In this document: positions 8,729 through 30,446 of the stretch, in pieces
Layout: each line of letters opens with the position of its first letter
Numbering within the stretch: position 1 is the first letter of the stretch
Assembly (NCBI GenBank): GCA_963536495.1
Contig: CAUTAF010000002.1
Location: forward strand, 74,032 to 138,031
Direction of reading: 5' to 3'
Length of the DNA stretch: 64,000 nt
Source: an uncultured Eubacteriales bacterium
GTDB taxonomy: Bacteria > Bacillota_I > Bacilli_A > RF39 > UBA660
Program-made: the position numbers and the translations under genes
The notes under the pieces: model-generated
Databases searched by the model: none
The model's input: only the letters and a program-made list of their open reading frames with translations
What the model was told of the DNA's origin: nothing

Positions 8729-8781
8729 ACTATCATTATATAATATTAATAAATATAATTACATACTATGTATAAATTTAT

Positions 8782-9726
8782 CTAATTATTGACATTTGTC
8801 ATAGAATCTCTTCTATGTTTTAAAACTTTTACAAATTCTTTAATTGATTCTTTTTTATTTTCATGTGTTGTTTCTTTTTCTTCTTCTATATATTTATTAA
8901 TATCAAGAACAACAATAGAATCACATATTTTATACAAATAAAAACCATATAATTGAGAATAATCATTTGTTTCTCTACCATTTACCAAAGCTTTTATATA
9001 TTCATCTTTTTCTTTTAAAGTTACATAGATCGGAGGAATACCTGCTTCTATAAACAATTTATTAGTTAAAGCTCTTATAGTTCGACCATTTCCATCAAAA
9101 AAAGGATGGACAAGTAACATATCAGCACTTAATTTTACTGCATCGTAAATAAATGATGTTATTTCTTCATCAGAATTATTTTCTTTTAATTTTTTTGCTC
9201 TTTCTTCCAAAGATGCTATATCTTTATTTAAATATAATGCTTCTTTATATATATTTTCCCAAGCAACTAAATTAGTAGGGTCTCCCTTTAAATATGCAGG
9301 TGATCTTCTAAATTCACCACCACATTCAGAATATTTTTCAAATTCAAATAACTTCTTATGAAATTCTTTTAATGTGTAAAAATTTAAACTATCTATTTCT
9401 TCACTAACTAAAAAATGATATAGATTTTTCATCCCTTGTTTTTGAGCATCATTATGATCCATATCCTCAAATTTAAGTTCATTTTTAACATAGTTTTTTA
9501 TAAATTCTTTATCATTTAAATTATATGTCTTTTTCATATCAAAATAATCAGTAACTAATTTTTCAGGAAGAGATAAATCAAAACTATATAAAATACCATT
9601 TTCTTGTCTATATTTATATGCTAAAAAACGTTCAATTATCTCATTATAAGCTTCTTTATCTATCATATTCAACACCTCTTTCTTTATTAAGTTATGTATT
9701 ATATCAAATTTTTTGTTTTTTAGCAA
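8782..9726 (-). CDS. Fic/DOC family protein, putative AMPylase
   Basis: Canonical Fic motif HPFFDGNGRTIR. Confidence 0.75.
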   Translation of the reverse strand: MLKNKKFDIIHNLIKKEVLNMIDKEAYNEIIERFLAYKYRQENGILYSFDLSLPEKLVTDYFDMKKTYNLNDKEFIKNYVKNELKFEDMDHNDAQKQGMKNLYHFLVSEEIDSLNFYTLKEFHKKLFEFEKYSECGGEFRRSPAYLKGDPTNLVAWENIYKEALYLNKDIASLEERAKKLKENNSDEEITSFIYDAVKLSADMLLVHPFFDGNGRTIRALTNKLFIEAGIPPIYVTLKEKDEYIKALVNGRETNDYSQLYGFYLYKICDSIVVLDINKYIEEEKETTHENKKESIKEFVKVLKHRRDSMTNVNN

Positions 9727-9816
9727 AAAGCTTAAATTTTATATTATTAAACTATTAAATTAGTTAATGAAGGTAAATAAAAAAGATTTATAAAATAAAA
9801 ATTTAGTTTTAATAAA

Positions 9817-10233
9817 TTAATTATCATATAACCATTTTGCAATTATTTGATATTTAGGTGTATATCTAGTTTCTTCTAATATATATTTTTTTAACCAAGA
9901 ATTTTTTTGATATAAGAAAAATACTGTAGATAATACTACTACATAATATAAAGAAAATTTAATAATTGTTTTTGTTATTTTTATTTCTTTATATTTTTTT
10001 ATTAATATATATATTAAAAATATGAATAATAAAAGACTTATAATTCCACTTAATATACCTATTTTTTTACTTATTAATATATTACTATTTAAAGATACTA
10101 TAAAAATAAAGAAAAATATCGGTAATAAAACAGATCCTACATAAGTAATACTATATAAGATTTTATTATAAAATTTGTTAAGTTCTATTTTTTCTTGTTC
10201 ATATATATCTAATATTTCAATTTTATTATTCAT
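9817..10233 (-). CDS. small membrane protein
   Basis: Multiple hydrophobic helices; overlaps the upstream ORF by 8 nt. Confidence 0.4.
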   Translation of the reverse strand: MNNKIEILDIYEQEKIELNKFYNKILYSITYVGSVLLPIFFFIFIVSLNSNILISKKIGILSGIISLLLFIFLIYILIKKYKEIKITKTIIKFSLYYVVVLSTVFFLYQKNSWLKKYILEETRYTPKYQIIAKWLYDN

Positions 10234-10528
10234 CTCTTCCTCTTTTAATACAATTATTATTTTTGATATCGTTTATCTTTAAATTATCACATTCTTCTTT
10301 ATATATTTCTTTTAATACTTCTATATTTTCACTTAATAATTCACTTAAGTTATTATCAACAAAAAACTTTTCATCATTTAATAAATCACTATTATTATTC
10401 ACTATATATTCAGCAATATTTAAATAAGAATAATTTTTATCATAATTATCTATTTTTTCTAAAATAAAACTTAATACTATTAAAAATAAACCTAAAACAA
10501 CAATTAAAAACTTCTTTTTATTTTTCAT
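10226..10528 (-). CDS. small secreted or membrane protein
   Basis: N-terminal signal/TM segment. Confidence 0.4.
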   Translation of the reverse strand: MKNKKKFLIVVLGLFLIVLSFILEKIDNYDKNYSYLNIAEYIVNNNSDLLNDEKFFVDNNLSELLSENIEVLKEIYKEECDNLKINDIKNNNCIKRGRDE

Positions 10529-10552
10529 ACTATCACTAAAATTATTATATAA

Positions 10553-10592
10553 AAAAAGAGTTACTTTTATAATTAATAACTCTTTTTTTTAT
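10553..10592. terminator. rho-independent terminator hairpin
   Basis: AAAGAGTTA...TAACTCTTT followed by a T-run and preceded by an A-run. Confidence 0.5.
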
Positions 10593-10606
10593 ATTGATAT
10601 GTAAAA

Positions 10607-11791
10607 TTATCTACCTCTAAACCATTCATATTTTCTATTTGGTAAGGATATATAATTATATGCTCCTCTATATCCATTAGCTGCTAAGTCTCTAATATAC
10701 TTATCTTTTGCCCACCAATTACGACATACATTGTCAAAATAATATCTACATGGAACTATTTCTAAGTGTAAATGAGGTCCAGTTGCCCATCCGGTAGAAC
10801 CCATATAACCAATTAAATCATCACTTGTTATATCATTTCCAACTCTAATTTTAGGTCCATATGAATCCATATGTATATAAACAGAAGTATAGTATTTACC
10901 ATCTTTATAGTGTGTCATAATAACAGTTTTTCCACCATAACCATCAGTATATACTGCTACTACTTTACCATTAGCTACAGCATATATAGGTTCTCTTTTA
11001 TTACTACTACTGATATCTACACCTTGATGGAAATATCCATATGTTGCTAAATCACCTTGATAACCAGTAACATAACCTTGTCTCATAGGTCTTCTAAATA
11101 TACCAGCATCATAATCTTTAGCACAATCAACTCCAATAACGTGATTTGATTTACAACCTTTTTTCTTATAATAATTAACTATTTCATCATATTGTTCTAC
11201 TTGTTTTTTTATACTAACTCCACCTTCAACTAAATGAGCTTTATCAGTTCCAAGTTTTACTAATTGATTATCCAATTCATTCTTTTTATCTGCAAGTTTA
11301 CTTTGAATAGAAATAATATCTTTTTGTCTTTGTTCTTGTTTTTTTATAGTATCTGTTAATGTTTTCGTAGTGTTTTTAGTATATTCTAAAAATTGATCTA
11401 CAACAGAATATCTATAGATAAATGTAGAAATATCTTTTGAATCAAATATATAATCTATATAAAAATTACCACTTTGAGACATTTGATAATACTCAATTAA
11501 CTTCTTAGTCTTTTTCTTTAAATTATCTATTTCTACCTTGTTATCTTCCATCTCTTTGATAATTACTTCTTTTTCTTTTAGCAAGGAATTAACTTCATCA
11601 TTAATAGTTTTTATTCTATTATTAGCAGATGCTATTGCATTATTTGTAGAATTTATTTTAGCATTATTACTATTTAATTCAGCTTTATATTGATTAAGTT
11701 TCGCCTCATATTCTCCAAGTGTTATTGCATTAATATTATTAGAAATAAATACTATAAATAAAAGTATTGATACTTTAAATAACTTTTTCAT
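10607..11791 (-). CDS. M23 family peptidoglycan endopeptidase with N-terminal coiled coil (FtsEX-associated type)
   Basis: Signal peptide, long coiled-coil region, C-terminal M23 motifs HQGVD...HLHLE; sits immediately downstream of ftsX. Confidence 0.8.
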   Translation of the reverse strand: MKKLFKVSILLFIVFISNNINAITLGEYEAKLNQYKAELNSNNAKINSTNNAIASANNRIKTINDEVNSLLKEKEVIIKEMEDNKVEIDNLKKKTKKLIEYYQMSQSGNFYIDYIFDSKDISTFIYRYSVVDQFLEYTKNTTKTLTDTIKKQEQRQKDIISIQSKLADKKNELDNQLVKLGTDKAHLVEGGVSIKKQVEQYDEIVNYYKKKGCKSNHVIGVDCAKDYDAGIFRRPMRQGYVTGYQGDLATYGYFHQGVDISSSNKREPIYAVANGKVVAVYTDGYGGKTVIMTHYKDGKYYTSVYIHMDSYGPKIRVGNDITSDDLIGYMGSTGWATGPHLHLEIVPCRYYFDNVCRNWWAKDKYIRDLAANGYRGAYNYISLPNRKYEWFRGR

Positions 11792-17183: not shown

Positions 17184-17215
17184 AAATACACCTCATTTCG
17201 GAAGTGTATTTTTTA
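17184..17215 (+). terminator. rho-independent terminator
   Basis: AAATACAC-loop-GTGTATTT followed by TTTTT. Confidence 0.55.
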
Positions 17216-17560: not shown

Positions 17561-19234
17561 CTAATACTTTTTTGTTTTTTTATATAACTTTTTTTCTTCT
17601 TTTTCAGCAGTTTTAGCTATTGTTTCTTTATATGAATCGTAATTACCAATATATTCTTTTATTTTACCATCTTCAAATACTATTACTTTATTTGCATATT
17701 TATTTATAAAAAATCTATCATGGCTTACAAAAATTAACGTTCCCCCAAAATCATCTAGTGCTTCTTCAAAAACTTCTTTAGTTGGAATATCTATATGATT
17801 AGTTGGTTCATCAAATATTAATGTATTAACTTCTTGTTGTAATAATTCAGCTAATTTAAGTCTCATTCTTTCCCCACCAGATAAATTTTTTAATTTTTTA
17901 TTAATAGTATCACCTTTAAACTTAAATCTTGATAGAATACTACGACTCTTTTCTTCTGGTAATCCTACTGATCTTGAAAAATATTCATATAAAGTTTTAT
18001 TTTCGTCTTCAAATTCAATAACTTGAGGTATATACCCTATTTTAACACTAGGTCCAATATAAATACTTCCACTACTTTCTAAACTTTGATTTCCCATAAT
18101 AGTCTTAACAAACGTTGATTTACCAGAACCATTTTCTCCAATTATAGCAACTTTATCTCCAGAGATAATTTCTAAATTAACATCATCTAATATAATATCT
18201 TTTTCTGGCGTAAAAACCGATAATTTATCTGCTACAATAATTCTGTTTGAAGATTTTCTTTTTTCATTAAAGGACATATTTATTTTCTTTTGTTCTAAAG
18301 GTTTTTTAATTGCTTCCAAACGCATTTTTTGTGCTCTTTCCCATAGATTCTTTCCTTGTCTTGTTAAAGAAGAACTATTTTTTGCCATTCCGGCTTGCAT
18401 AAATTGTTTTGCTTTTAGTTCTAATTGTTTAATACTTTCTTGTTCATCACCATATTGTGCTAATCTTTTTTGATACATTTCCTCACTAAGTTTTAAATAT
18501 CCCGAATAATTTGTAGCATATACTCTTCCAATCCCATCATCATCAATAGTTAAAACTTTATTAACCATTTTATCTAAAAAATATCTATCATGAGAAACTA
18601 TAACAGATGCACCCTTGAATGATTTTATATATTCTTCTAACCATTCAATTCTATTAATATCAAGATGGTTAGTTGGTTCGTCTAATATTAATAAGTCAGG
18701 TTTTAATAAAAGTATTTTTGCTAATTGAACAATAGTTTTTTCTCCTCCAGATAAATTTTTATATAACTCTTTTTTTATATTTTTATCAAGTTTCAAACCA
18801 TTTGTTACTGTACTAATTCTACTTTCAATTTCATATCCACCTAATAAGTTAAATTTTTCAATTAATGCACAATATTTTTCTAATTCTTTTTCGTTATAAT
18901 CTTCACTAATCTTTTTTTCATAAATTTTAATTTGTCTTTCAAGTTCATTTATTTCACTAAAAGCATCTTTTAAAACTTCATACACTGTTTTATCATTATC
19001 TATATTTACTATGCCTTGATCTAAATAACCAACTTTAGCTCCTTTTTTAATATTAATAGAACCAGTATCAGTTGATTCAAGACCCATAATTAATTTTAGT
19101 ATTGTAGATTTTCCACAACCATTAGGTCCAATTATTGCTATTGATTCTCCTTCGTTAAGAGAAAAAGAAACATCTTCAAATAAATGATTATATCCAAAGT
19201 TTTTTGATATTTTATTCACATCTAATAATAACAA
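17561..19234 (-). CDS. ABC-F family ATPase (tandem NBDs, no TMD), EttA/ARE-like
   Basis: Two Walker A motifs (GPNGCGKST, GENGSGKST), two signature motifs (LSGGEKT, LSGGERMR), inter-domain linker, size about 557 aa. Confidence 0.85.
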   Translation of the reverse strand: MLLLDVNKISKNFGYNHLFEDVSFSLNEGESIAIIGPNGCGKSTILKLIMGLESTDTGSINIKKGAKVGYLDQGIVNIDNDKTVYEVLKDAFSEINELERQIKIYEKKISEDYNEKELEKYCALIEKFNLLGGYEIESRISTVTNGLKLDKNIKKELYKNLSGGEKTIVQLAKILLLKPDLLILDEPTNHLDINRIEWLEEYIKSFKGASVIVSHDRYFLDKMVNKVLTIDDDGIGRVYATNYSGYLKLSEEMYQKRLAQYGDEQESIKQLELKAKQFMQAGMAKNSSSLTRQGKNLWERAQKMRLEAIKKPLEQKKINMSFNEKRKSSNRIIVADKLSVFTPEKDIILDDVNLEIISGDKVAIIGENGSGKSTFVKTIMGNQSLESSGSIYIGPSVKIGYIPQVIEFEDENKTLYEYFSRSVGLPEEKSRSILSRFKFKGDTINKKLKNLSGGERMRLKLAELLQQEVNTLIFDEPTNHIDIPTKEVFEEALDDFGGTLIFVSHDRFFINKYANKVIVFEDGKIKEYIGNYDSYKETIAKTAEKEEKKLYKKTKKY

Positions 19235-19301: not shown

Positions 19302-20102
19302 TTATAAAAACAATTCCGTTAATAAAATATAATACTCTATAACTTCATAATTTGGTTTAATTTCTAATCTTTCAAACAACATTTTTTCTGCTTCTGGTGT
19401 TTCATAATTTCTTCTCAATGATTTAACTAGTATTGCTATATCATACCAATAATCAGATACTCCTGCATCTCCCATATCAATAAATCCAGTTATTTTATCA
19501 TTTTCAAAAAAAATATTAGGTAAACTTAAATCTCCATGAGAAAAACATAGTTTTTCTGTTTTTGGTTTATGATTAATTAAATATTCATACGCTTTTTGGG
19601 GAGTACCAAATTTTTTGGTATTTTTTTCTTCCATTGTTGTTATTAAATTATTTTCTATATTATATTTAGCAATTGCTAATTTTATATCTAAAGTATTATA
19701 TATTAAGCATGTACTAATATCTAAGCTTTGTAAGATTTTAAGTGCTTTTGCTGCTAAATTAACAACATATTTCATATCATCAAAAATATCATCATCACAA
19801 ATCATTTTTCCTTTTAATTTTTCTGTTAGCATTATAGATTTATTTTTATCATATGAAAAATAAATTACCTTCGGAACTAAACCAGTATCCTTCAAATAAT
19901 TATAAATATAATATTCTTTATCCAAGTTATTTTCTTTAGATTCTTTAATAAAAAACACTTCATTATTTTTATTTGTTATTTCACTTACTTTATTACCAGA
20001 ACAACCTATTTCAATATCTTTTACAATAGATTTTTCTAATATTTTTTTTATAAATTTATCCATTATTTTTTTCTCCTCATTATTAACTCTTTTGCTGAAC
20101 AA
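19302..20102 (-). CDS. aminoglycoside/antibiotic phosphotransferase-like kinase (APH family)
   Basis: FSHGDLSLPNIFFENDKITGFIDMGDAGVSDYWYDIAIL closely follows the APH(3') catalytic-loop and DFG-like region. Confidence 0.65.
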   Translation of the reverse strand: MFSKRVNNEEKKIMDKFIKKILEKSIVKDIEIGCSGNKVSEITNKNNEVFFIKESKENNLDKEYYIYNYLKDTGLVPKVIYFSYDKNKSIMLTEKLKGKMICDDDIFDDMKYVVNLAAKALKILQSLDISTCLIYNTLDIKLAIAKYNIENNLITTMEEKNTKKFGTPQKAYEYLINHKPKTEKLCFSHGDLSLPNIFFENDKITGFIDMGDAGVSDYWYDIAILVKSLRRNYETPEAEKMLFERLEIKPNYEVIEYYILLTELFL

Positions 20103-20917
20103 GACTCACTACATATATTATTATCAATACCATGTCCAATTACAATACCTTGATTTTCTTCTTCATAATGAAAATCAGATCCAACACTTTCTAAAAGATT
20201 TAACTTTTTTGCTATTTCTTTATAAAATATAAAATCATCTTTAGTAAATGAAGAATGACAACTTTCAATTCCAATCAATCCTATTTTTTTTAAACTATCA
20301 ATAAGTTTAAAGATATTTTGTTTATCTATTTTTATTTTATTTGGATGAGCTATTATAGCAATACCTCCACTATCTATAATAAGTTTAATCGCTTTTTTAA
20401 TATCAATTTCATAACCAGGATATTCTGAATTATATTCTTGTATTTCTTTCGCTATATCTTGTGCTCTACTAAAACTATAATTATTTTTTATCAACAATCT
20501 TCTTATTTGCTCATCTATAAGCATATAATTATTTAAGTCTACTTGTTCTTTTATATAAGATGGAACATCTATTTTTTTGCAAGATATTTTATCTAAAGTT
20601 TCTATATGTCCCTTTTTTAGAACTTCTTTCATTCTAGATAATTCTTCGTTAAGTTCTTTATTATTTGAATCATAATCATACCCCAACAAATGAATACAAA
20701 TATTTTGATTCAAAAAATTATATTTTGTAGACAATTCTATTCCTTTTACGATTACAATATTGCTTTCAGATAAAATTTCATTAGATGGTATAATTATATC
20801 ATGATCAGTTATACTTAAAAAATCAACATTATTTTCTTTAGCTTTTTTTATTAAATTTTCAACTGATTCTGCACCATCGCTATATGTTGAGTGTACATGC
20901 ATATCTATATATTTCAT
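20063..20917 (-). CDS. PHP-domain phosphoesterase
   Basis: MHVHSTYSDG...ITDHD metal-binding motifs; overlaps the kinase gene by 40 nt. Confidence 0.65.
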   Translation of the reverse strand: MKYIDMHVHSTYSDGAESVENLIKKAKENNVDFLSITDHDIIIPSNEILSESNIVIVKGIELSTKYNFLNQNICIHLLGYDYDSNNKELNEELSRMKEVLKKGHIETLDKISCKKIDVPSYIKEQVDLNNYMLIDEQIRRLLIKNNYSFSRAQDIAKEIQEYNSEYPGYEIDIKKAIKLIIDSGGIAIIAHPNKIKIDKQNIFKLIDSLKKIGLIGIESCHSSFTKDDFIFYKEIAKKLNLLESVGSDFHYEEENQGIVIGHGIDNNICSESCSAKELIMRRKK

Positions 20918-20918
20918 A

Positions 20919-22388
20919 TTAAAGCTCCATTAATTCAATTATAACATTCATTAATATTTTCATTTTTTCAATTAATTCTAAATAATATGAAGAAAATGTT
21001 ATTCTTCCAACAATTTTTTCTGAATCTAATACTCCACAAGCAGTACCTGGAATAAATTTAATTTTACTATGTTTAAAAAGTTCAATTAAAAGATCATTAT
21101 CACTTTTAATTATATTTTCATTTATTTTCTTACTCTTTAATTTAGAAAAATCAATTAAAGCAAAGAAACCAGAAATTGGAATTATACCATTATAAAATGA
21201 TAAGATATTATTCCCTTTTTTATAATATTTTATTTCATCAATAGTTAAATTATTTTCAATGATTTTTCTATCTTTATTTGGTATAGTCAAAGCGCCAAGA
21301 ATAAAATATTTAAGTATTGATAAATTTAATTCATATTGTTTGTTAATATCAACTAAATATTTTTTTCTATAATTAGCTTTCATATAATTATCAGTAAAAA
21401 CAGAAGCTAATGCTATTTGGCTAAGCATAGAAACAGAATCTTGATCTAAAAATATATTATCTCTAATATCTTGAATAAAATATTTATTAGCTACAATAAA
21501 TCCAGCTCTTAATGATGCTAAAGAATAAGATTTAGATATACCAAAAAATGAAATAACATTATCTTTATACTCATCAAATGAATTTAAAGAAAAAGAACTA
21601 TATTCACTATCATAAACAGAATCTCTATAAATTAAATCTTCTATTATTAAAACCTTTTGTTTATAACATAATTTAGCTAATTCATGCAAATATTTTTTAT
21701 CTTTATAACTATAAGAAATACCTAAAGGATTATTTGGATTTTGAAAATATATAGCTGCTACCTTAGGAATATACTCATCTTTTTTATGAATTAAAAATAG
21801 TTTTTTATTAATATCAATTATTTGTTTTTCGAGGTTTTCTAAATTAATTTTCCAATTTAAATTTTGATCAAATTTAACCAATTCAATATTAGAGCCTAAT
21901 TTAAGCGGCTCATACAAAAATAAATTATATGTAGGCACTGGTATTAAAATAACATCATTTTTTCTTAAAACTGTTTTTAATATTAAAGAATATGCTTGGG
22001 TGGTAGATGAAGTTATAATTATTTCTTCTTCATTTCTAGATTTTATTCCAATTGAATTTAAATATCCAATTAAATTTTTTTTCACTTTAGAATCTCCTAT
22101 AGTATTTGGATATTGATTGGTATTATTTTCTTTTAAATAATAATCAATATCCTTTTTAACAAATTCATATTGTTTCCATTTTAATGGATTACCTCCACCA
22201 AAACTGATTACTTTTTCATCTTTTAGATATTTATAAATATCATATCTATATACATTAGAAGATTTTATTATTTTTTTTAAGTCTTCACTTAAATAATCAA
22301 AATTAATATTAATATTAGGACAATAATTTTCTTTTAACAAATATGATTTTCTTTTTAATAAATCATTCAACACAAAATCATTTTTCAT
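20919..22388 (-). CDS. PLP-dependent aminotransferase, class I/II fold, with N-terminal extension
   Basis: SKSYSLASLRAGF (PLP Lys, Arg), NPNNPLG. Confidence 0.65.
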   Translation of the reverse strand: MKNDFVLNDLLKRKSYLLKENYCPNININFDYLSEDLKKIIKSSNVYRYDIYKYLKDEKVISFGGGNPLKWKQYEFVKKDIDYYLKENNTNQYPNTIGDSKVKKNLIGYLNSIGIKSRNEEEIIITSSTTQAYSLILKTVLRKNDVILIPVPTYNLFLYEPLKLGSNIELVKFDQNLNWKINLENLEKQIIDINKKLFLIHKKDEYIPKVAAIYFQNPNNPLGISYSYKDKKYLHELAKLCYKQKVLIIEDLIYRDSVYDSEYSSFSLNSFDEYKDNVISFFGISKSYSLASLRAGFIVANKYFIQDIRDNIFLDQDSVSMLSQIALASVFTDNYMKANYRKKYLVDINKQYELNLSILKYFILGALTIPNKDRKIIENNLTIDEIKYYKKGNNILSFYNGIIPISGFFALIDFSKLKSKKINENIIKSDNDLLIELFKHSKIKFIPGTACGVLDSEKIVGRITFSSYYLELIEKMKILMNVIIELMEL

Positions 22389-23256
22389 AATATACCTCGT
22401 TTATATAATTAATTATTTTTTTATAATCTTTTATTTTTTTATCCATTCTAAAATATAATGTTTTATATCTTAACTTTTCTATATTAGAAAAAGAAGCATT
22501 TTTACAAAAAATTTCAAAAGGTAATTTTTCTATTGTAGTTTGTAAAATATCACTGTTATTCTCTTCCATATATTTATATAGTTTATCCTCTAATACAGAA
22601 AAACTTTCTTTATCAATATCAATTACAAATACTACTCTATGATAAGAAAAATTATCACAATCAATTAATCTGCCAGGAATCATTAAATTATCTTTTATAT
22701 ATTTATATTTTTTCTTTTTTTTTAAATAATTGAATCTATAAAAAAATATTTTTAAAAATAATCTTATTTTATCTATTGAGTTTATTTTAATTTTTGTTTT
22801 TAAATCTTTTTTAGAATATAAATAAGAATATTTTCCAAATGAAATTGGTTTTCTATTATTAAAAGAATAAATTATATAATCATATATTCCATAGTTATTT
22901 TTAATACCACTTTGACAAGAATCCAATATTTTAATAATCTTAGTTTTACTTTTGCTATAATAAATTTTATTATCAATAACAATATTTCCATATTGTTCAA
23001 CAAAAACTATTATTTTTGTTTTAAAAGAAATTTTTTTATTTATTTCTTTTTTATCTATCAAAAAATTATCATCTATATCAACAAATATTGGAATCAATCC
23101 GTTGCTTATAATAGTTTCAATTACACTTTCACATAACGTAACTGGAACTATTACTTCACTCCCTTTTTCAAAATTTAAATTTTTAAAAATTATATCAAAT
23201 GAATTAGTTCCACTTAATGCTATATTTTTAATAAAATTTTTCATTTTTATCTCCAT
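22378..23256 (-). CDS. divergent DegT/DnrJ/EryC1-like protein
   Basis: SGTNSFDII...GSEVIVP...PIFVDID and DSCQSG...SFNNRKPISFG resemble the DegT layout but are degenerate. The likely start is an internal Met (MKNFIKN) rather than the longest-ORF start at 23337. Confidence 0.4.
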   Translation of the reverse strand: MEIKMKNFIKNIALSGTNSFDIIFKNLNFEKGSEVIVPVTLCESVIETIISNGLIPIFVDIDDNFLIDKKEINKKISFKTKIIVFVEQYGNIVIDNKIYYSKSKTKIIKILDSCQSGIKNNYGIYDYIIYSFNNRKPISFGKYSYLYSKKDLKTKIKINSIDKIRLFLKIFFYRFNYLKKKKKYKYIKDNLMIPGRLIDCDNFSYHRVVFVIDIDKESFSVLEDKLYKYMEENNSDILQTTIEKLPFEIFCKNASFSNIEKLRYKTLYFRMDKKIKDYKKIINYINEVYYEK

Positions 23257-24190
23257 AATCATATAATTCTTCATATAAACTATGTTTTTTATTTTTTTCA
23301 TAATAAAAATTAAAATATAATTCTTGGTAAGAACCAAATGATAAATTCCAATTTTCTATTTCTTGAAAAACAGACCCTTCAAAATCTAAATATTTAGATA
23401 TATTATTTTTTTTCAAATATTTAATTAACTCAAAATATAATTTAGGAATAGGCGATGCATAATTTTTATTATAATAACTATACATTATATAACAATTAAT
23501 TTTATCCCAAACTACACAAATTCCACCAATTACTTTATTTTTATAAACAGCTATAAAACATTCACCTTTTTTATTTTCAATTGCTTTTTCAATATATTTC
23601 TTAACAAATTTTTCACTTGTTTTAGGACCATAATTATATTCCCATTTTAATGATTCTTGAAAATCATATAATGATATATCACCACTTTTAATATTAATTT
23701 CTGATATGCTTTTTATATCTCTTTTTCTATCTCTACAAAAAGAAGAAAATATACTATCAAGAGAATCAGATAAATTTATTTTATATGTATATCTGACTTC
23801 TGGAACAAAACCATTTTTTACACATGAAATTATATCTTTAATATACGGATCAAAAGAAAAAGAAATCGAATTATAATATTTTTTTAAATATTTTAGCATT
23901 TTATTTAGAACTTCCCTAGTATATAATAATTTTTTACGATTAGACGAAAAATTAAAAAGCAATACTGGTCCACCATATGGAATATACATAGTAGATTGTT
24001 CTAATGATTTATTTTTTTCAAACAGAGGAAAAAAAGCAACAAGCTTTTTATTATCATACACACATAATAATCTTTTAACTTTTTTTAATTTCAAAAAGAA
24101 TTCATAAGCAAAAGCTGTACCATTTAATGAATTGTCTACTAAAAAATCAATGTTATTTATATCACTTAGTTTATTAATCTTTACTTCCAT
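23228..24190 (-). CDS. FemAB/Acetyltransf_6-like (GNAT-fold) acyl- or aminoacyl-transferase
   Basis: C-terminal GNAT-like core (CFIAVYKNKVIGGICVV...YLDFEGS); paralogous to the next gene. Confidence 0.4.
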   Translation of the reverse strand: MEVKINKLSDINNIDFLVDNSLNGTAFAYEFFLKLKKVKRLLCVYDNKKLVAFFPLFEKNKSLEQSTMYIPYGGPVLLFNFSSNRKKLLYTREVLNKMLKYLKKYYNSISFSFDPYIKDIISCVKNGFVPEVRYTYKINLSDSLDSIFSSFCRDRKRDIKSISEINIKSGDISLYDFQESLKWEYNYGPKTSEKFVKKYIEKAIENKKGECFIAVYKNKVIGGICVVWDKINCYIMYSYYNKNYASPIPKLYFELIKYLKKNNISKYLDFEGSVFQEIENWNLSFGSYQELYFNFYYEKNKKHSLYEELYDYGDKNEKFY

Positions 24191-24986
24191 TTTTTATTAT
24201 TTCAAAATATACTCTTTTTATGCTATTTGTTTTTAGCAAATCATATATTTGATTATTCCTTCCAAATAAATCTATATTTAAAGTTTCTTCATCAGAAATT
24301 TTTTCTATTTGATGAAGTAACGCTATTATTCCTGCATTATTTTTTCTTCCTATATCAGTAGCTCCCCATTTTGATGCATAATAAATATTATCATATTTAT
24401 ATAACAATGAATAAGCTATTGGACTATTTTCAATATAAACTACTGTAATATAAGAAAATTTTTTTAAAGATAATAAAGAAATATGTTCGTAATACATATT
24501 AAGCATATCTGTTTTTTCTTTTCTCTTCCAACTATTTTGATCTATATATAAAATATCTTTCCAAAGTTCTAAAACATTATCTTCACTATCAACAATATTA
24601 AGTCTTTCAGATAATTTTTTACATTTTTTTATTAATCTTTTACAATTTTTACTTCTAGAAGATATATAATCTTTATAGTTTCCTTTTGTTATTTTTATAA
24701 ATGGTGCTTCCCATTCACAATTAATTTTAAGATTATATTTTGAATTTAAATAACTAAATACTTTTGAATTTTTATTAATATTTCTAAATTTTATAGCATA
24801 ATTTTTATTTATTTTATTTATTAAAAAAACATCATTTTCATTTAAATGAAAATCAAAATATTGAAAGCAATTTTTACCATCATAATATCTAATTATATCT
24901 ATATTATCAGATGAAGAAATATTTCTAACTGGAAAACGATAATATAAAGAAAGTCTATAGTTTTTATCGCTAGTAAAATTATACAT
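24174..24986 (-). CDS. FemAB/Acetyltransf_6-like transferase
   Basis: ITVVYIENSPIAYSLLYKYDNIYYASKWGAT...IDLFGRN pattern. Confidence 0.4.
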   Translation of the reverse strand: MYNFTSDKNYRLSLYYRFPVRNISSSDNIDIIRYYDGKNCFQYFDFHLNENDVFLINKINKNYAIKFRNINKNSKVFSYLNSKYNLKINCEWEAPFIKITKGNYKDYISSRSKNCKRLIKKCKKLSERLNIVDSEDNVLELWKDILYIDQNSWKRKEKTDMLNMYYEHISLLSLKKFSYITVVYIENSPIAYSLLYKYDNIYYASKWGATDIGRKNNAGIIALLHQIEKISDEETLNIDLFGRNNQIYDLLKTNSIKRVYFEIIKNGSKD

Positions 24987-26145
24987 TTTTATAATTCTCC
25001 AAATTTTGTTTTATATACTTTAAATCATTTTTACTTAGTTTAGAATTCAAATTTAACCAAGCAGTTCTTTGTAATAAATTTAAACTTTTATTACAATTAA
25101 CAACTTTATAATTATTATATGGATAATTATTTTTATATGGAGATAGTGAATTTATAAAAGTATTATAAGACGGTAAATAATTAGATATTTTTTTATGAAA
25201 TTCAATATTATTTTTATTCATATAAGAGATAAAATTATCGCATTCTTCTTCGTTATCAAAAGTTAATGATAAACTCAAATACACTGCTTGAATATCTTTT
25301 ATTTCTTTTCTAATATTATATCCAGTTAATTTGTTAGTTAAAACATTATAAATATATTTTTGTCTTTTAACTATTTTTTGATACTTATCTAATTGACCAT
25401 CTAAAATAGCACTTTCTAAATCTGTTATTTTTAAATTTTCACCATAAGAAATATATTTTTTATTCCACACTGGCATTTGATTGAATTCTCTTTCTCCACC
25501 ATTATCTGCAAAACGTTTTGCTACATTCATATTTTTTTTTGTAGTAAAACCTCCTCCTTCTCCGCAAGTAATTATTTTAGAAGACTGAAAACTAAATGCA
25601 CTACTATCACCAAAAGTTCCAGTATATTTATTCTTATATTTTGTTCCAAAAGATTGAGCTACATCTTCTATCAATATTAAATTATATTTTTTACAAAGCA
25701 TCATTATTTTTTCCATATCACATGGAAAACCTTGAAAATGCACAACTACTATAGCTTTTGTTTTTTTAGTTATCTTTTTTTCTATATCATTAACATCAAT
25801 ATTAAACGTATTATCTATTTCAGCAAAAACAGGAATTGCACCAACGTTTAAACATGCTGTAGCAGTAGCTATAAAAGATAAACATGGGACAATTATTTCA
25901 TCACCGTACCCAATATTATTAGAAATTAAAGCTAATTTTAACGCTGAAGTTCCATTGTTAACTAATAAGAAGTCTTGAGAAAACATTAAACTTAATCTTT
26001 TTTCAACTTTATCTGTTTTATACTGCATATTTACACCATCATACCTAAATAGACTTTTGCTATTTAACATAGATAATACCAAAATTTTTTCTTTAAAACC
26101 TATATAGTTCAAACCATAAAAAGCATCTGTACATATTTTTCTCAT
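24979..26145 (-). CDS. DegT/DnrJ/EryC1/StrS family PLP-dependent sugar aminotransferase or dehydratase
   Basis: GTSALKLAL, GDEIIVP, IPVFAEID, FSFQSSKIITCGEGG (PLP lysine). Confidence 0.8.
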   Translation of the reverse strand: MRKICTDAFYGLNYIGFKEKILVLSMLNSKSLFRYDGVNMQYKTDKVEKRLSLMFSQDFLLVNNGTSALKLALISNNIGYGDEIIVPCLSFIATATACLNVGAIPVFAEIDNTFNIDVNDIEKKITKKTKAIVVVHFQGFPCDMEKIMMLCKKYNLILIEDVAQSFGTKYKNKYTGTFGDSSAFSFQSSKIITCGEGGGFTTKKNMNVAKRFADNGGEREFNQMPVWNKKYISYGENLKITDLESAILDGQLDKYQKIVKRQKYIYNVLTNKLTGYNIRKEIKDIQAVYLSLSLTFDNEEECDNFISYMNKNNIEFHKKISNYLPSYNTFINSLSPYKNNYPYNNYKVVNCNKSLNLLQRTAWLNLNSKLSKNDLKYIKQNLENYKNV

Positions 26146-26148
26146 TTG

Positions 26149-27252
26149 TTAGTTCCTTTCAAAATCTTTAATTATTTCATTTATTCCATTCTTATTTATA
26201 TTTTTATAGAATTTTTTTCTTAAATCAAAATTATCTTCTTTATATTCAAAAAATTTTTTTATTTCTTTATTAAAATTTTTATAATCATATTTTTTCAAAT
26301 TCTCTAAAACTAATTTTATTCCCAAGCTTTCTTCTAAATAATATTTTATTTTTTTACATTTATTATTTTCTTGAAAGAAAAAATCTAAATTAAATTTTTT
26401 AAATTCTAATCTTTGCAAATATTGACTGTAATTAATAGGTAATAAAAATAACACCTTTATATTAGTTGATATTATTTCATTAAAATTACCTAGACCAGGA
26501 GACATAATTGCATAACTAGATTTTTTAATTATTTTTCTATATAAATTATTATCAAAACTATCTATAACAATATTATTATCAAATTTGATATTTTGTTTTA
26601 AGTAATTAATTATAAAATTTCCACCTGCAATATATACTTTTTCAAAATTTTTAATATAAGAATTTTTAAGAATAAAATTAACAGTTTTTAGATAAAAATT
26701 ATTGATAAAAGAGGAATCATACATATATGATTCTGCTCCACCTAAAGATATTAATAAATTATTTTTTTTACTATTATCTATAAATTTTTCTATTTTTCTT
26801 AATGATCCAACTTTTATTATATTAGACATATTTTTTGCTATTCTATTAATATTTTTATCACAAGATATTACATTAGAAATATAATATCTTTTTAAATTTA
26901 TCAACTCTTTTTCTATAAAGTCCCACATCCAAAAAATATTATCAATTAAATATAAATTAGATAAATGATATTTATTTATTAAAAAAATCAAAATATCAGT
27001 TGTTTCAATAGAAATAATTTTATCTGCTGTAAGAAAATACTTCTTATATTTTTCAAATTTTTTTATGTCATAATCATATGCTATTAATTTATCAAAAACA
27101 TTTTCTTTATTCGCTTTTTCTATGCACAATTTTGGACCAATAAAAATAAATTCATATTTATTTTTGTTCATTTTTGTTACTAAATGTATCGCTGTATTAA
27201 TAGGTCCATATCCAAATGCATCTGCTAATATTAAGATTTTATTTTTTTTCAT
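26149..27252 (-). CDS. putative GT-B fold glycosyltransferase or hydrolase (GT28/PseG-like)
   Basis: N-terminal ILILADAFGYGPINTAIHL pattern reminiscent of MurG/PseG; weak. Confidence 0.3.
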   Translation of the reverse strand: MKKNKILILADAFGYGPINTAIHLVTKMNKNKYEFIFIGPKLCIEKANKENVFDKLIAYDYDIKKFEKYKKYFLTADKIISIETTDILIFLINKYHLSNLYLIDNIFWMWDFIEKELINLKRYYISNVISCDKNINRIAKNMSNIIKVGSLRKIEKFIDNSKKNNLLISLGGAESYMYDSSFINNFYLKTVNFILKNSYIKNFEKVYIAGGNFIINYLKQNIKFDNNIVIDSFDNNLYRKIIKKSSYAIMSPGLGNFNEIISTNIKVLFLLPINYSQYLQRLEFKKFNLDFFFQENNKCKKIKYYLEESLGIKLVLENLKKYDYKNFNKEIKKFFEYKEDNFDLRKKFYKNINKNGINEIIKDFERN

Positions 27253-28246
27253 ATATTTTTTTGTTCATGTAAACGTTAGCATTATCACATTTGCTTTTGC
27301 ATTTACTACATTCTATCTCAAGTTCTTTTAATAACATACTATATTTTTTATTGCCAATAATTTGATTTAAAGGATTATCTATAAGATTACCAATAGCATA
27401 ATAATCTTCGTCTCTATGAACTGAACAATCACATGGATAAACATTTCCACTTACACAATCAATAAACAATGTATATTTTAATATCTTACAAGGTATTTTT
27501 TCTTTTCTGTAATCATCTCCATTATCAGAATATAAATTTTCTTCAAAATAATTAATATCGTCATATAGTAATTCAATATTATATTTTTTTATATTTTGTT
27601 TATATTTTTTTATATTTTTATTGTAATATTCAATTTGTTTTTTAGAAAAATAATATTCTGGACATTCTTTAATTATTATTGGATTTAAATAATCATACTC
27701 TACTGTTTTTTTCATTTCAATAAATTTTCCAAAATCATCAATGTTTTCAAAATTCAATACATGATTAATAACTATTTTAACATTTGGCAATTCATTTTTA
27801 ATTAAATTAATAGCTTTAGTTGCTATATCAAATATCCCTTTCACCCCTCTAATAGAATCATGAATTTCTGATTTAAAACTATCTATAGAAAAGAAAATAG
27901 CTTTAATATTATATTTTTTTAATTTTTTAATGTTAGATTTCGTTAAAAAAAAACCATTTGTAATAAAAACTATATTTAAACCTAATAAAGTTGCATATTC
28001 AAAATATTCATATATTTTTTTATTCGCTAAAGGCTCTCCTCCTCCAGTAAAATGAATATATTTACCACCATTGTTTTTAACATCCTTTAAAATTTCCTTT
28101 ACATCTAACTTTGATTCTTTCTCTTTTTTTTCATGTATATCACAAAATTTACATTTAGCATTACAAATATTAGAAATAGAAAGAAAATAATAGAGTGGAT
28201 TTTGACTGGTATTTTCTAATAAATCATTAAATAATTTATAATACAT
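27239..28246 (-). CDS. radical SAM enzyme with C-terminal SPASM/twitch-like cysteine cluster
   Basis: CNAKCKFC (Cx3Cx2C) and GGGEPL at the N-terminus; C-terminal CKILKY..CVSGNVYPCDC...CSKCKSKC. Confidence 0.75.
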   Translation of the reverse strand: MYYKLFNDLLENTSQNPLYYFLSISNICNAKCKFCDIHEKKEKESKLDVKEILKDVKNNGGKYIHFTGGGEPLANKKIYEYFEYATLLGLNIVFITNGFFLTKSNIKKLKKYNIKAIFFSIDSFKSEIHDSIRGVKGIFDIATKAINLIKNELPNVKIVINHVLNFENIDDFGKFIEMKKTVEYDYLNPIIIKECPEYYFSKKQIEYYNKNIKKYKQNIKKYNIELLYDDINYFEENLYSDNGDDYRKEKIPCKILKYTLFIDCVSGNVYPCDCSVHRDEDYYAIGNLIDNPLNQIIGNKKYSMLLKELEIECSKCKSKCDNANVYMNKKIYEKK

Positions 28247-28691
28247 TTAATACCTCCTTAATTTTATTCATTATAAGATTGATAGTATTATCTGATATTA
28301 AATCTTCATAATATACAAATTCACATTCAGTTAACTCTTTTAATCCCATTATCATAGGACTATACTCTAAGTTTTTATCTAAAAAAACTATCATCTTCTT
28401 TTTTTGATTACTTGCCCATCCAATTTCAACATGAACTCCTCCACTAATTGGGTTACCTGGTATTGCTAAAAATAAATCACATTCACTTATAGCTTTAGTA
28501 TCAGCTATAATACTTTCAGAAGGGCTAATATATTTTTCTCCCCACTCTTCCCTTTCTTGACTACAAAAATAATCTAAATTATTTTCTTTAAAAAAATTAA
28601 TTATTTTTTCAAAAAACCAACGATTTTCTAAAATAATATCTGAATCTTCTTCACAAAATTGTGAAAATGGAGATGCAAAAAATATTTTCAT
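28236..28691 (-). CDS. nucleoside 2-deoxyribosyltransferase superfamily protein (NDT/BlsM/MilB-like)
   Basis: IFFASPFS...DLFLAIPGNPISGGVHVEIGWA follows the NDT-family layout. Confidence 0.55.
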   Translation of the reverse strand: MKIFFASPFSQFCEEDSDIILENRWFFEKIINFFKENNLDYFCSQEREEWGEKYISPSESIIADTKAISECDLFLAIPGNPISGGVHVEIGWASNQKKKMIVFLDKNLEYSPMIMGLKELTECEFVYYEDLISDNTINLIMNKIKEVLNVL

Positions 28692-28692
28692 A

Positions 28693-30009
28693 TTATTTAT
28701 TTCCTTTCATTTCATCAAATTCTTTTTTGATATATTTATTTGTTCTATATATTTTTTCTTCTCTTATTTTTTTTATTTTTTCTACTCCAAAATATTCTTC
28801 CATTTGAATAATCATATTATGAACATCAGCTATTTCTTCAATAACATTTGGTAAAAGTTTATTATTATAGTCTTCTCTTTTATATTTACAAAGCGCTTGT
28901 ATTAATTCTCCCATTTCTTCTATAAGAACATTACTTTGACAATCAAATCCCCAAAAATCAATATAGAATTTTAAAAGAGCATTTGTTTCATTATCAGTTA
29001 AAGTTAAATCTTTTTTAATTAGTTCATAAATTCTAGTAGCTTCATCAAATTCTATTTGACCAACTTTATTATTATTAAATTTTTTTACATACTCTTTATA
29101 TCTACGTACTATTTCTTTTTTAGCATGTTTTTCGGCTATAGAAATATTTAAAATTCCACTTTCTATTTCGTTAATAAAAAATTCAATAATAGATTTTTTA
29201 TCTTGATCACAATCTGGAACTAATGTTTTTAACAATAAAAATGTTTCTTTGTCTCTTTCATCAATACATCTAAGCTCAGCATATTTTTGTAAATATTCAT
29301 AATCTATACAATCATTACCTCTAACATCACACATTGCCATAGACGCAGATAAGTTTATAGGATTATTAATTGAAAGTGTCGGTACTAAAAATGTTTCAAT
29401 TTTTCTATAAGAAGAAATTTTTTTATTTTTATTTTCATAAGCTATTTGCGATATACATGTAGCAAATTTTCCCGAGTTAGCTCCTGGACCAACTACAAAT
29501 ACTAATTTTTCTTTACACGGTATATATTCGTTTTTAAATATTCCATCTTTTGAAAAAACTTCTTTTATATTATAAGGATAGTTTGAATCTTCAAACTGTT
29601 TATATACATTATAACCTAAGTTTTTTAGCTTTTTTATATAATTATCTATTTTAGAATTTTTTCTATATCTCGTAATTGAAATATTAAATTTTATATTATC
29701 TTTAACAAAAACATTTATTAATCTTAACACTTCATCCATATATGACTTACAATTATCTTTTCTTTTTTTATTTTTTATAATTGATATTGAATTAATACAT
29801 ATTATCATCTCAAAATCAACATTTAAACTTTTTATTATTTCATATTTATTATCCGGATTATAACCTACAAAAACTCTAGCTGCATGTTGATCATCAATTA
29901 TTTTTCCACCAACTTCAATATATATTCTTTCTTTAATATCGTTTATAATTTCTAATATTTTTTCTTTTTCTTTTAAAAAATATTTTTTATTATCAAAATT
30001 TTTTTTCAT
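28693..30009 (-). CDS. two-domain protein: N-terminal P-loop-like region plus C-terminal MazG-like NTP pyrophosphohydrolase domain
   Basis: VVGPGANSGKF (GxxxxGK); C-terminal EEMGELIQAL...EEIADVHNMI, an EExxE pair typical of MazG; first gene of the operon with AAGGAA RBS. Confidence 0.5.
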   Translation of the reverse strand: MKKNFDNKKYFLKEKEKILEIINDIKERIYIEVGGKIIDDQHAARVFVGYNPDNKYEIIKSLNVDFEMIICINSISIIKNKKRKDNCKSYMDEVLRLINVFVKDNIKFNISITRYRKNSKIDNYIKKLKNLGYNVYKQFEDSNYPYNIKEVFSKDGIFKNEYIPCKEKLVFVVGPGANSGKFATCISQIAYENKNKKISSYRKIETFLVPTLSINNPINLSASMAMCDVRGNDCIDYEYLQKYAELRCIDERDKETFLLLKTLVPDCDQDKKSIIEFFINEIESGILNISIAEKHAKKEIVRRYKEYVKKFNNNKVGQIEFDEATRIYELIKKDLTLTDNETNALLKFYIDFWGFDCQSNVLIEEMGELIQALCKYKREDYNNKLLPNVIEEIADVHNMIIQMEEYFGVEKIKKIREEKIYRTNKYIKKEFDEMKGNK

Positions 30010-30413: not shown

Positions 30414-30446
30414 ACAAAAAAACTTCCAAATTGGAAGTTTTTTATT
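30414..30446. terminator. bidirectional terminator downstream of lysS
   Basis: AACTTCCAA-TT-TGGAAGTT with A-run and T-run flanks. Confidence 0.6.

Follow-up and report, generated by a model that had tools for sequence, protein, structure and literature searches.

The producer of streptomycin, an aminoglycoside, phosphorylates its own drug with the kinase StrA (APH(6)), and a phosphatase encoded in the same cluster, StrK, an exported enzyme of the alkaline-phosphatase type, frees the active drug. Cluster kinases that phosphorylate a sugar hydroxyl as a means of self-resistance are also known for capuramycin (CapP, which is APH(3')-like), hygromycin A (Hyg21), and A201A (Ard2); all three are actinomycete enzymes without a paired phosphatase. 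Here, we analyzed a kinase and phosphatase gene pair at positions 19302 to 20917, on the minus strand of a 64-kb window (64,000 nucleotides of contig CAUTAF010000002.1, from an uncultured Eubacteriales bacterium). The original prediction for this pair was of an APH(3')-like kinase and a PHP-domain phosphoesterase that overlap by 40 nucleotides (nt) within a biosynthetic operon and serve self-protection in the manner of StrA and StrK.

A second described pair, AmiN and AmiO of the Bacillus amicoumacin cluster, resembles the one studied here: in these Firmicutes, too, genes for a kinase and a phosphatase adjoin those that make an antibiotic directed at the ribosome, and stand-alone homologues of AmiN occur in strains that lack the amicoumacin cluster (PMC6156654). 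As with StrA/StrK and AmiN/AmiO, where both genes lie inside the cluster, both genes of our pair lie inside one terminator-bounded operon. The phosphatases differ, however. AmiO bears an alkaline phosphatase annotation (PMC6156654), whereas the enzyme in the window is a PHP-fold protein of the TrpH type that appears to lack a signal peptide; relative to StrK, it appears cytoplasmic, belongs to another superfamily, and is found in a nucleoside-type pathway. The antibiotic class of amicoumacin also differs from the one predicted for our operon.

The remaining genes of the operon invite comparison with the pathways to blasticidin S, mildiomycin, and arginomycin. The pyranosyl-cytosine core of these compounds is made from cytosine derived from cytidine monophosphate (CMP) by a cytosine-sugar glycosyltransferase, a BlsE/MilG radical SAM enzyme, and transamination, a route defined by BlsD/MilC, BlsE/MilG, and cytosylglucuronic acid (CGA) (PMC3715490). 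In the blasticidin S pathway, leucylation masks a toxic intermediate and so protects the producer (PMC5572114). Our operon appears to share with these clusters a CMP N-glycosidase, a radical SAM enzyme similar to BlsE/MilG, a glycosyltransferase, and an aminotransferase for sugars (PMC3715490, PMC5572114). Unlike them, it comes from uncultured low-GC gut Bacilli and not from Streptomyces, its proposed masking group is phosphate instead of leucine, and it adds an ABC-F protein, the PHP protein, a DUF1846 protein, and two conserved proteins.

With middling confidence, we favor a reading in which the kinase confers self-resistance by acting on the operon's own nucleoside while the PHP protein strips that scaffold of a phosphate, most likely the one placed by the kinase. 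Its two halves differ in strength: self-protection by the kinase is reasonably supported, and partnership of the PHP protein with the kinase is plausible.

The kinase and phosphoesterase genes and their operon

Both open reading frames of the original prediction proved real, on the minus strand at exactly 19302 to 20102 and 20063 to 20917. The kinase frame contains the motifs HGDLSLPNIF and IDMGDAGVSDYWYDIA and, in its longest form, begins at TTG 20102. An in-frame ATG lies at 20063, with a GGAG 9 nt upstream; it is the start chosen by metagenome gene callers, which gives a kinase of 253 amino acids (aa) (19302 to 20063), and the N-termini of all kinase homologues align to it. On these grounds the longest-frame start was rejected, and ATG 20063 is probably the true start, with TTG 20102 not used. 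The PHP gene (20063 to 20917, 284 aa) encodes a metal-dependent phosphoesterase of the TrpH/YciV type, as judged from Pfam PHP, NCBIfam, and PDB matches. Its stop codon TAA (20065 to 20063) shares a single nucleotide with the kinase ATG (20063 to 20061), in the sequence TAATG, so the 40-nt overlap shrinks to 1 nt; it had arisen because the longest open reading frame was taken mechanically. In the window's type of cassette, the junction between the two genes ranged from -17 to +17 nt over 20 loci. All junctions of the operon fall between -17 and +3 nt, with the sole exception of the 67 nt between the kinase and ABC-F genes, and tight spacing is therefore shared across the operon and not peculiar to the pair.

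The assignment of the kinase as APH(3')-like was upheld: in addition to carrying the motifs, it matches Pfam APH (63.7 bits) and the NCBIfam model APH_3p (NF033068; 198.1 bits, under the curated cutoff of 205), its best PDB match is APH(3')-IIIa (134 bits, 33 to 35% identity), and its AlphaFold2 (AF2) model (pLDDT 91.8) aligns with that enzyme (1j7l) in Foldseek at a TM score of 0.81. The pair also lies, as predicted, in a biosynthetic operon. Its members are genes 10 (PHP) and 11 (kinase) of 12 minus-strand genes running from 30009 to 17561, which include a CMP-glycosidase, a BlsE-like radical SAM enzyme, a GT-B glycosyltransferase, and a ribosomal-protection ABC-F protein. Terminator-like hairpins on the minus strand mark the upstream edge, after lysS (30417 to 30443), and the downstream edge, beyond the ABC-F gene (17184 to 17211); none was found inside the 12-gene operon.

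Conservation of the pair across cassettes

The exact kinase sequence was indexed in 132 blocks of a public assembly collection, of which we read the 23 longest contigs. Related cassettes occur in metagenome-assembled genomes (MAGs) of gut Bacilli in four architectures, here called types A to D. Type A, the window's own, has the same 12 genes at 41 to 73% amino acid identity between other flanking genes (glmS, mutS, and others). Type B is a more distant family with kinases 33 to 41% identical to ours. Its genes follow a LysR gene in the order PHP, a 189-aa gene, CMP-glycosidase, radical SAM, glycosyltransferase, DegT, a 280-aa gene, a 320-aa gene, a methyltransferase-like gene, a DegT-like gene, ABC-F, and APH. 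Type C begins with PHP, has two kinds of cassette gene (DegT and one of CMP-glycosidase size) reshuffled, and encodes an APH with an N-terminal extension. Type D also begins with PHP, and APH is absent. Types C and D additionally carry weak Ham1-like and MazG-like matches and a NUDIX gene.

An unbiased scan, centered on the glycosyltransferase and not on the kinase, yielded 19 cassettes with enough flanking DNA. PHP, APH, and ABC-F were all intact in 16 of them. Among the others, one (L092) had APH and ABC-F together with a PHP gene interrupted by a nonsense codon, one (L124) lacked ABC-F, and a divergent one (L125) lacked all three. The kinase is also found without the cassette. Of 17 kinases that stood alone, flanked on each side by 8 kb or more of unrelated genes, 12 carried the subfamily's pocket signature (described below), as did the kinases of four loci (L013, L026, L050, and L069) that held a kinase and ABC-F pair without biosynthetic genes. 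Bacilli and Erysipelotrichaceae are among the hosts of these orphan kinases, and one gut Alphaproteobacteria MAG had a solo kinase of the subfamily. APH and ABC-F stay neighbors across cassette types and in the orphan pairs, whereas the kinase and PHP are neighbors only in type A and in L021 and L022, rearranged loci closely related to it.

Since the kinase is near-constant in the cassette, usually sits beside ABC-F, and is also maintained alone elsewhere, it behaves like a resistance gene, and its occurrence without biosynthetic genes is the distribution expected of one. The same orphan pattern is described for AmiN. The existence of orphan kinases and of kinase and ABC-F pairs suggests that gut communities are under real selection from the compound. 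On a broader reading, which we give below as doubtful, the kinase subfamily, spread as orphans into Clostridia, Erysipelotrichaceae, and gut Alphaproteobacteria, would be a natural resistome for that compound.

For the PHP gene, the evidence of association comes from type A and its derivatives. It lies directly upstream of the kinase in all 20 type A loci measured. In L021, the two genes form a unit of their own on the strand opposite to the biosynthetic genes. In L015 (contig CAKOJQ010000005.1, a GTDB MAG, 8756 to 11110), the cassette has decayed while the pair is intact: C-terminal fragments of the 489-aa aminotransferase and of ABC-F flank it, the biosynthetic genes are gone, and mnmA is directly upstream.

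Two of the divergent loci had further peculiarities. The APH of L138 (16456 to 18114) is a variant of 354 aa, its N-terminus extended by about 120 residues; the next gene encodes a 191-aa protein whose weak match is Ham1/ITPase-like. The type D locus L139 (10001 to 20523) has PHP, two DegT genes, a 692-aa weak Acetyltransf_6 protein, CMP-glycosidase, ABC-F, and radical SAM, but no APH; a MazG-like gene and, upstream, a NUDIX gene are also present. A 373-aa protein of L139 has a faint match to class I lysyl-tRNA synthetase (26.4 bits; cutoff, 27), which recalls the tRNA-synthetase-like gene of the blasticidin cluster and hints, by analogy, at acyl rather than phosphate masking.

The PHP phosphoesterase

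The PHP protein scored 35.9 bits against Pfam PHP (cutoff, 26.4), and its best NCBIfam matches were to 3',5'-nucleoside bisphosphate (pAp) phosphatase (124.8 bits; cutoff, 400), RNase RNM (101.7 bits; cutoff, 375), and phosphoribosyl cyclic phosphodiesterase (75.1 bits; cutoff, 500). Its relatives in the PDB are 9etk, 7ug9 (Escherichia coli RNase AM), 2yb1 (Cv1693), and 3e0f. It resembles RNase AM and the pAp 3'-phosphatase Cv1693 in fold, metal ligands, length, and insertion domain (PMC9410882), and residue roles were taken from RNase AM (PMC9410882). In a neighbor-joining tree, the PHP proteins of all cassette architectures formed one clade of 85 of the 159 sequences, with generic TrpH-like proteins and PHP-NUDIX fusions falling outside. 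Two members of the clade, when looked up, lay in further cassette variants, and one PHP protein from outside it adjoins priA, a housekeeping setting.

The nine metal ligands (equivalents of H13, H15, D20, H45, E72, H83, H198, D255, and H257) are kept in 82 to 85 of the 85 clade members. The substrate pocket is different. In RNase AM, Arg107, Arg110, and Arg141 form a positively charged pocket that buries the 5'-phosphate of the substrate (PMC9410882). At the position of Arg141, 71 of 74 generic PHP relatives have R or K, whereas the five commonest residues there in the 85 cassette-clade proteins are D, S, I, E, and H; in the window's protein, aligned to its PDB relatives, the residue is Asp135. 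Arg107 is kept in 61 of the 85, and the Arg110 position is variable in both groups. On this alignment evidence, the PHP protein is a cassette-specific offshoot of the TrpH/YciV nucleotide phosphoesterases, set apart from RNase AM and Cv1693 by loss of the Arg141 equivalent and by a clade restricted to cassettes. Enzymes of this family act on phosphates of nucleoside sugars, which favors a partnership with the kinase, and loss of the 5'-phosphate pocket in the cassette proteins would fit a substrate without a 5'-phosphate.

Several relatives (P0119, P0123, P0132, P0137, P0166, P0173, P0181, and others) were TrpH-type PHP-NUDIX fusions of about 450 to 494 aa.

How the pair may work

In the reading we favor, the kinase would draw on ATP and its intact APH(3') core to place a phosphate on a sugar hydroxyl of the amino-nucleoside made by the operon, whether as end product or late intermediate, so that the compound could no longer harm the producer's ribosomes. 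The kinase and its neighbor, the ribosomal-protection ABC-F protein, would make up a self-resistance module, and this module, or the kinase alone, would circulate in nonproducers as a resistance determinant. The PHP protein is predicted to be a trinuclear-metal phosphomonoesterase derived from TrpH/YciV-type nucleotide 3'-phosphatases and 5'-3' nucleases, and it would most likely take a phosphate off the nucleoside scaffold. We prefer the version in which it reverses the kinase's mark and releases the active drug; alternatively, it may remove a phosphate borne by a pathway intermediate. If the preferred version holds, it would be the first PHP-family enzyme to unmask an antibiotic, and it points to a possible new role for TrpH-type PHP enzymes beyond RNA and pAp metabolism. 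A broader statement, that uncultured gut Bacilli widely encode a new ribosome-targeting cytosine-nucleoside antibiotic with the kinase as its off switch, the PHP protein as its on switch, and the orphan kinases as its resistome, strikes us as doubtful.

A number of observations weigh against the favored reading. PHP is the first gene, distant from the kinase, in three of the four architectures (B, C, and D), and the type D locus keeps PHP, ABC-F, and core genes without APH. In an otherwise intact type A cassette, represented by two assemblies, the PHP gene carries Q141* (CAG to TAG; L016, 9552 to 9554, and L092, about 16732); the codon is CAG in L015, a sister lineage. Either the allele is naturally null for PHP or the stop codon is read through. 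On inspection of its sequence, the PHP protein has no apparent signal peptide or membrane segment; it begins MKYIDMHVHS, directly with the metal-binding HxH motif and without a hydrophobic leader. Because the two enzymes would share the cytoplasm, they would risk a futile cycle. The scores of the PHP protein and the radical SAM enzyme are far under the curated equivalog cutoffs, and the latter resembles prokaryotic viperins about as strongly as it does BlsE. By Pfam, the families expected for blasticidin's beta-arginine side chain (arginine 2,3-aminomutase and ATP-grasp ligase) are absent from all 12 genes, and no exporter gene was found in the cassette. The identities and family placements of the genes, the conserved gene set, the residue patterns, and the orphan kinases are observations; the product class, the substrate of the kinase, and its link with PHP are putative. 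The StrA/StrK scheme of the original prediction therefore survives in part. Self-protection by the kinase gains from the orphan kinases and the ABC-F neighbor, and the phosphatase half is weakened by Q141*, by the presence of PHP without the kinase in one architecture, and by the apparent lack of a signal peptide.

Some of these observations would be accounted for if the kinase, with ABC-F, served purely in resistance and PHP were an independent phosphohydrolase, either biosynthetic or with a house-cleaning role, whose substrate is an intermediate derived from a nucleotide or a phosphorylated by-product that is toxic; their adjacency would then be incidental. We consider this unlikely, although by no means strongly so. 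Gene order is in its favor, with PHP leading types B, C, and D next to CMP-glycosidase or DegT genes, and with APH joined to ABC-F across types and in orphan pairs but to PHP in just type A, L021, and L022. Type D has PHP without APH, and types C and D add genes resembling nucleotide pyrophosphohydrolases (weak Ham1-like and MazG-like matches and NUDIX). Against it, the type A pair is always contiguous and has been kept together in the rearranged L021 and the decayed L015. The lost 5'-phosphate-binding arginine argues against an ordinary nucleotide substrate, and we know of no step in the known cytosyl-hexose pathways (PMC3715490) that needs a phosphatase.

Cryptic phosphorylation has been described for nikkomycin and polyoxin. 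Applied here, the kinase would act on an early intermediate, downstream enzymes would need the phosphate, and PHP would remove it at the end; this corresponds to the phosphosugar-processing alternative of the original prediction. That both proteins appear cytoplasmic and co-transcribed with tight junctions, that the cassette has no exporter, and that kinase and PHP are near-universal in cassettes would all agree with such a scheme, which we nevertheless regard as improbable: orphan kinases of the same subfamily and kinase and ABC-F pairs without biosynthetic genes are hard to square with a purely biosynthetic enzyme, type D retains the whole core without the kinase, and the putative PHP-null allele sits in an otherwise intact cassette.

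The APH(3')-like kinase

The other NCBIfam scores of the kinase were much lower than that for APH_3p: 52 bits for APH(3''), 30.7 for homoserine kinase, and about 16 for APH(2''). Macrolide and choline kinase models gave no match in the Pfam and NCBIfam scans. In the Foldseek ranking, APH(3')-IIIa was followed by APH(3')-Ia, -IIa, and -IIb and then by APH(3')-VIII, APH(3''), and APH(2''), and no choline or homoserine kinase fold appeared among the top 50 structural matches. Membership in the choline, LicA, homoserine, or macrolide kinases was rejected on these scores and this ranking. Kinship with LicA/choline or homoserine kinases, which the original prediction had named, along with the lack of a resistance phenotype, as the finding that would overturn it, was not observed, because the homoserine kinase score was low (30.7 bits versus 198 for APH(3')) and no such fold was in the top 50.

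We aligned 111 relatives to APH(3')-IIIa and used its numbering. The catalytic equivalents K44, E60, D190 (HGD190), N195, and D208 were invariant in all 111. Around the aminoglycoside site, however, the subfamily departs from APH(3')-IIIa: E157 becomes M, L, or I; D193 becomes L or I; R211 becomes D or E; E230 becomes R (R/K among cassette kinases); D261 becomes T or M; and position 264, a C-terminal Phe in APH(3')-IIIa, is a Phe or Tyr followed by one more residue (...ELFL or ...ELYL). Glu160 and Glu262 are mostly retained. In the characterized enzyme, the binding loop contributes Glu157 and Glu160, which form hydrogen bonds to the aminoglycoside; Glu262 and Phe264 are likewise described as critical (PMC3691515). 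We defined the pocket signature of the subfamily as D/E211, R/K230, a non-acidic residue 261, and one residue past the normally C-terminal Phe/Tyr; it was common to all 51 cassette kinases. An exhaustive profile search of 1.84 billion representatives returned 234 members of the kinase family at an E value of 1e-30 or lower, and of the best 149 of these, 85 were canonical (R211 and D261, mostly ending in ...LDELF) and nine had the signature. The kinase is thus APH(3')-like by sequence and fold, with a similar length, but it is not a typical APH(3'): it falls under the family cutoff, has altered pocket residues, and sits in a nucleoside biosynthetic cassette. Because the pocket features of aminoglycoside APH(3') enzymes have been lost, the aminoglycoside phenotype proposed for testing by minimum inhibitory concentration seems unlikely, and the subfamily's substrate is probably not an aminoglycoside.

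A further account would make the kinase gene a standard resistance gene for an aminoglycoside 3'-phosphotransferase that merely neighbors a sugar or nucleoside operon to which it is unrelated. Its nearest characterized relative is indeed APH(3')-IIIa at 33 to 35% identity, its APH_3p score of 198 is only 7 bits short of the cutoff, and some homologues are named "aminoglycoside 3'-phosphotransferase" by their sources. But the kinase travels with the cassette through its four architectures, down to 33% identity; Glu157 is replaced by M, L, or I, Phe264 is not terminal, and R211 and D261, canonical in 85 of 149, are replaced; and no member of the subfamily was found on 72,556 plasmids or 50,697 phages, where the best match was aph(3')-IIIa itself at about 35% identity. 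We therefore judge this account very unlikely. On the broader reading given above, the kinase subfamily may also be part of the evolutionary pool that gave the clinical aph(3')-IIIa. Resistome annotation would be affected, because genes of the subfamily are currently labeled "aminoglycoside 3'-phosphotransferase."

Protein searches also returned kinase domains in other contexts. P0051 to P0064 are fusions of about 406 aa that join an APH-like kinase domain, about 30% identical to ours, to TrmD (tRNA m1G37 methyltransferase, PF01746); the two copies named by source come from Spirochaetales MAGs. P0042 (431 aa) and several representatives of 400 to 515 aa have APH(3')-like domains with N-terminal extensions, and P0042 carries GNAT acetyltransferase domains and is possibly a bifunctional modifying enzyme. 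In some strains of the window's species, we also saw truncated kinase calls (P0210, 57 aa, on nine contigs of up to 208 kb, and P0213, 110 aa), and in one strain (L006, 7677 to 9145), the 489-aa aminotransferase is split into 39 and 388 aa. These may reflect strain-level inactivation or assembly errors in A-rich tracts.

Biosynthetic genes and predicted product

All 12 genes of the operon are on the minus strand. Gene 2 (28236 to 28691, 151 aa) encodes a CMP N-glycosidase-like protein of the BlsM/MilB/BcmB family, identified by its PDB matches (4jen, E value of 1.6e-24; 5vto, BlsM, 4e-21; MilB, 9e-21). Gene 3 (27239 to 28246, 335 aa) is the BlsE-like radical SAM/SPASM enzyme (Pfam Radical_SAM, 94.3 bits; SPASM, 29.5 bits). 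Its best PDB match is the cytosylglucuronate decarboxylase BlsE (7vob, E value of 3e-15), and it scores 77.6 bits against the NCBIfam BlsE model, whose cutoff is 400. Gene 4 (26149 to 27252, 367 aa) is a GT-B glycosyltransferase by its AF2 model (pLDDT 92.3) and Foldseek, which returned the GT1 UDP/TDP-glycosyltransferases OleD, YjiC, and GtfD at E values of about 1e-8; it had no Pfam match and just 21 word-indexed homologues among 5.8 billion proteins. From this modeled fold, it is a candidate for the enzyme that couples base and sugar. Gene 5 (24979 to 26145, 388 aa) is a sugar aminotransferase of the DegT/DnrJ/EryC1 type (PF01041, 239 bits). Gene 8 (22378 to 23244, 288 aa) is a short DegT-like protein with a partial match to DegT_DnrJ_EryC1 (55.6 bits). 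Gene 9 (20919 to 22388, 489 aa) has the fold of class I/II pyridoxal phosphate aminotransferases (Aminotran_1_2, 96.3 bits) and occurs in the window's cassette type and a few others. The last gene, gene 12 (17561 to 19234), encodes the ABC-F ATPase of the ribosomal-protection type, which scores 449.9 bits against NCBIfam NF000355, above the curated cutoff of 380. It has two ABC_tran stretches and an ABC_tran_Xtn linker (Pfam) and shares about 41% identity with proteins from plasmids that are named "ribosomal protection-like ABC-F."

Because the operon's CMP-glycosidase, glycosyltransferase, radical SAM enzyme, and aminotransferases resemble those of the known route, we infer that its product is a hexopyranosyl-cytosine, probably aminoacylated, of the blasticidin, gougerotin, mildiomycin, or amicetin class; the operon probably makes a blasticidin-like cytosine-nucleoside antibiotic. 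What the operon encodes looks like a cytosine-nucleoside pathway of the blasticidin, gougerotin, or amicetin class and not like an aminoglycoside pathway. Drugs of the predicted class target the ribosomal peptidyl-transferase center, and the ribosomal-protection ABC-F protein fits such a target.

It is highly improbable that the locus is instead an antiphage system making a viperin-like chain-terminating nucleotide whose phosphorylation state is tuned by the kinase and phosphatase, since, although the radical SAM enzyme scores 73 bits against PADLOC pVip models and 66.8 bits against the NCBIfam viperin model and types C and D carry MazG-like, Ham1-like, and NUDIX genes, PADLOC returned nothing for the other genes bar generic ATPase matches to ABC-F, the enzyme has a SPASM domain and a BlsE match that reaches beyond the core, and the CMP glycosidase, GT-B protein, two or three aminotransferases, and ABC-F fit a ribosome-acting antibiotic and not a nucleotide analogue.

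Our literature searches found nothing that combines cytosylglucuronic acid with a phosphotransferase, nothing on cytosylglucuronic acid that concerns Firmicutes or gut bacteria, and no description of the 12-gene cassette in the searchable literature; phosphatases went unmentioned in a review of self-resistance. The cassette is best classed as a blasticidin-type cluster with kinase and phosphatase self-protection of kinds already known, in which the host group and the phosphatase family are unusual. If the favored reading is right, it points to an unexplored antibiotic family from abundant uncultured gut bacteria, the locus brings a three-part protection consisting of a kinase, a phosphatase, and a ribosome-protecting ABC-F protein, and resistance-guided discovery gains a concrete case in which the gut microbiome would yield a translation inhibitor.

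Other features of the locus

Gene 6 of the operon (24174 to 24986, 270 aa) is a borderline GNAT/FemAB-like protein (Acetyltransf_6, PF13480, 24.3 bits; cutoff, 22), for which a family-profile search of the PDB gave no match. Gene 7 (23228 to 24190, 320 aa) had no Pfam, NCBIfam, or PDB match and is conserved in all cassette types examined; a profile-profile comparison of the 320-aa and 270-aa proteins gave nothing significant. Gene 1 (28693 to 30009, 438 aa) is a DUF1846/UPF0371 paralogue (PF08903, 237.7 bits; PDB 7f00 and 3bh1). At 438 aa it is shorter than the usual 495 to 507 aa or so, and the match covers only about the first 340 residues. A member of this family is listed among the essential genes of Clostridioides difficile (PMC12157513), and the name hemin-binding protein has been given to one from pneumococcus (PMC9238395). 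The paralogue was found in type A cassettes and the rearranged L021, and L022 has a short C-terminal-like fragment.

No riboswitch or leader RNA matched Rfam at the gathering score anywhere in the 64-kb window. The GC content of the window is about 19 to 29% throughout, the minus strand carries nearly all of its genes, and only one 2-kb bin departs from a negative GC skew. The cassette sits between lysS/dus/ftsH/tilS and a release-factor gene, and its composition is the same as that of its flanks.

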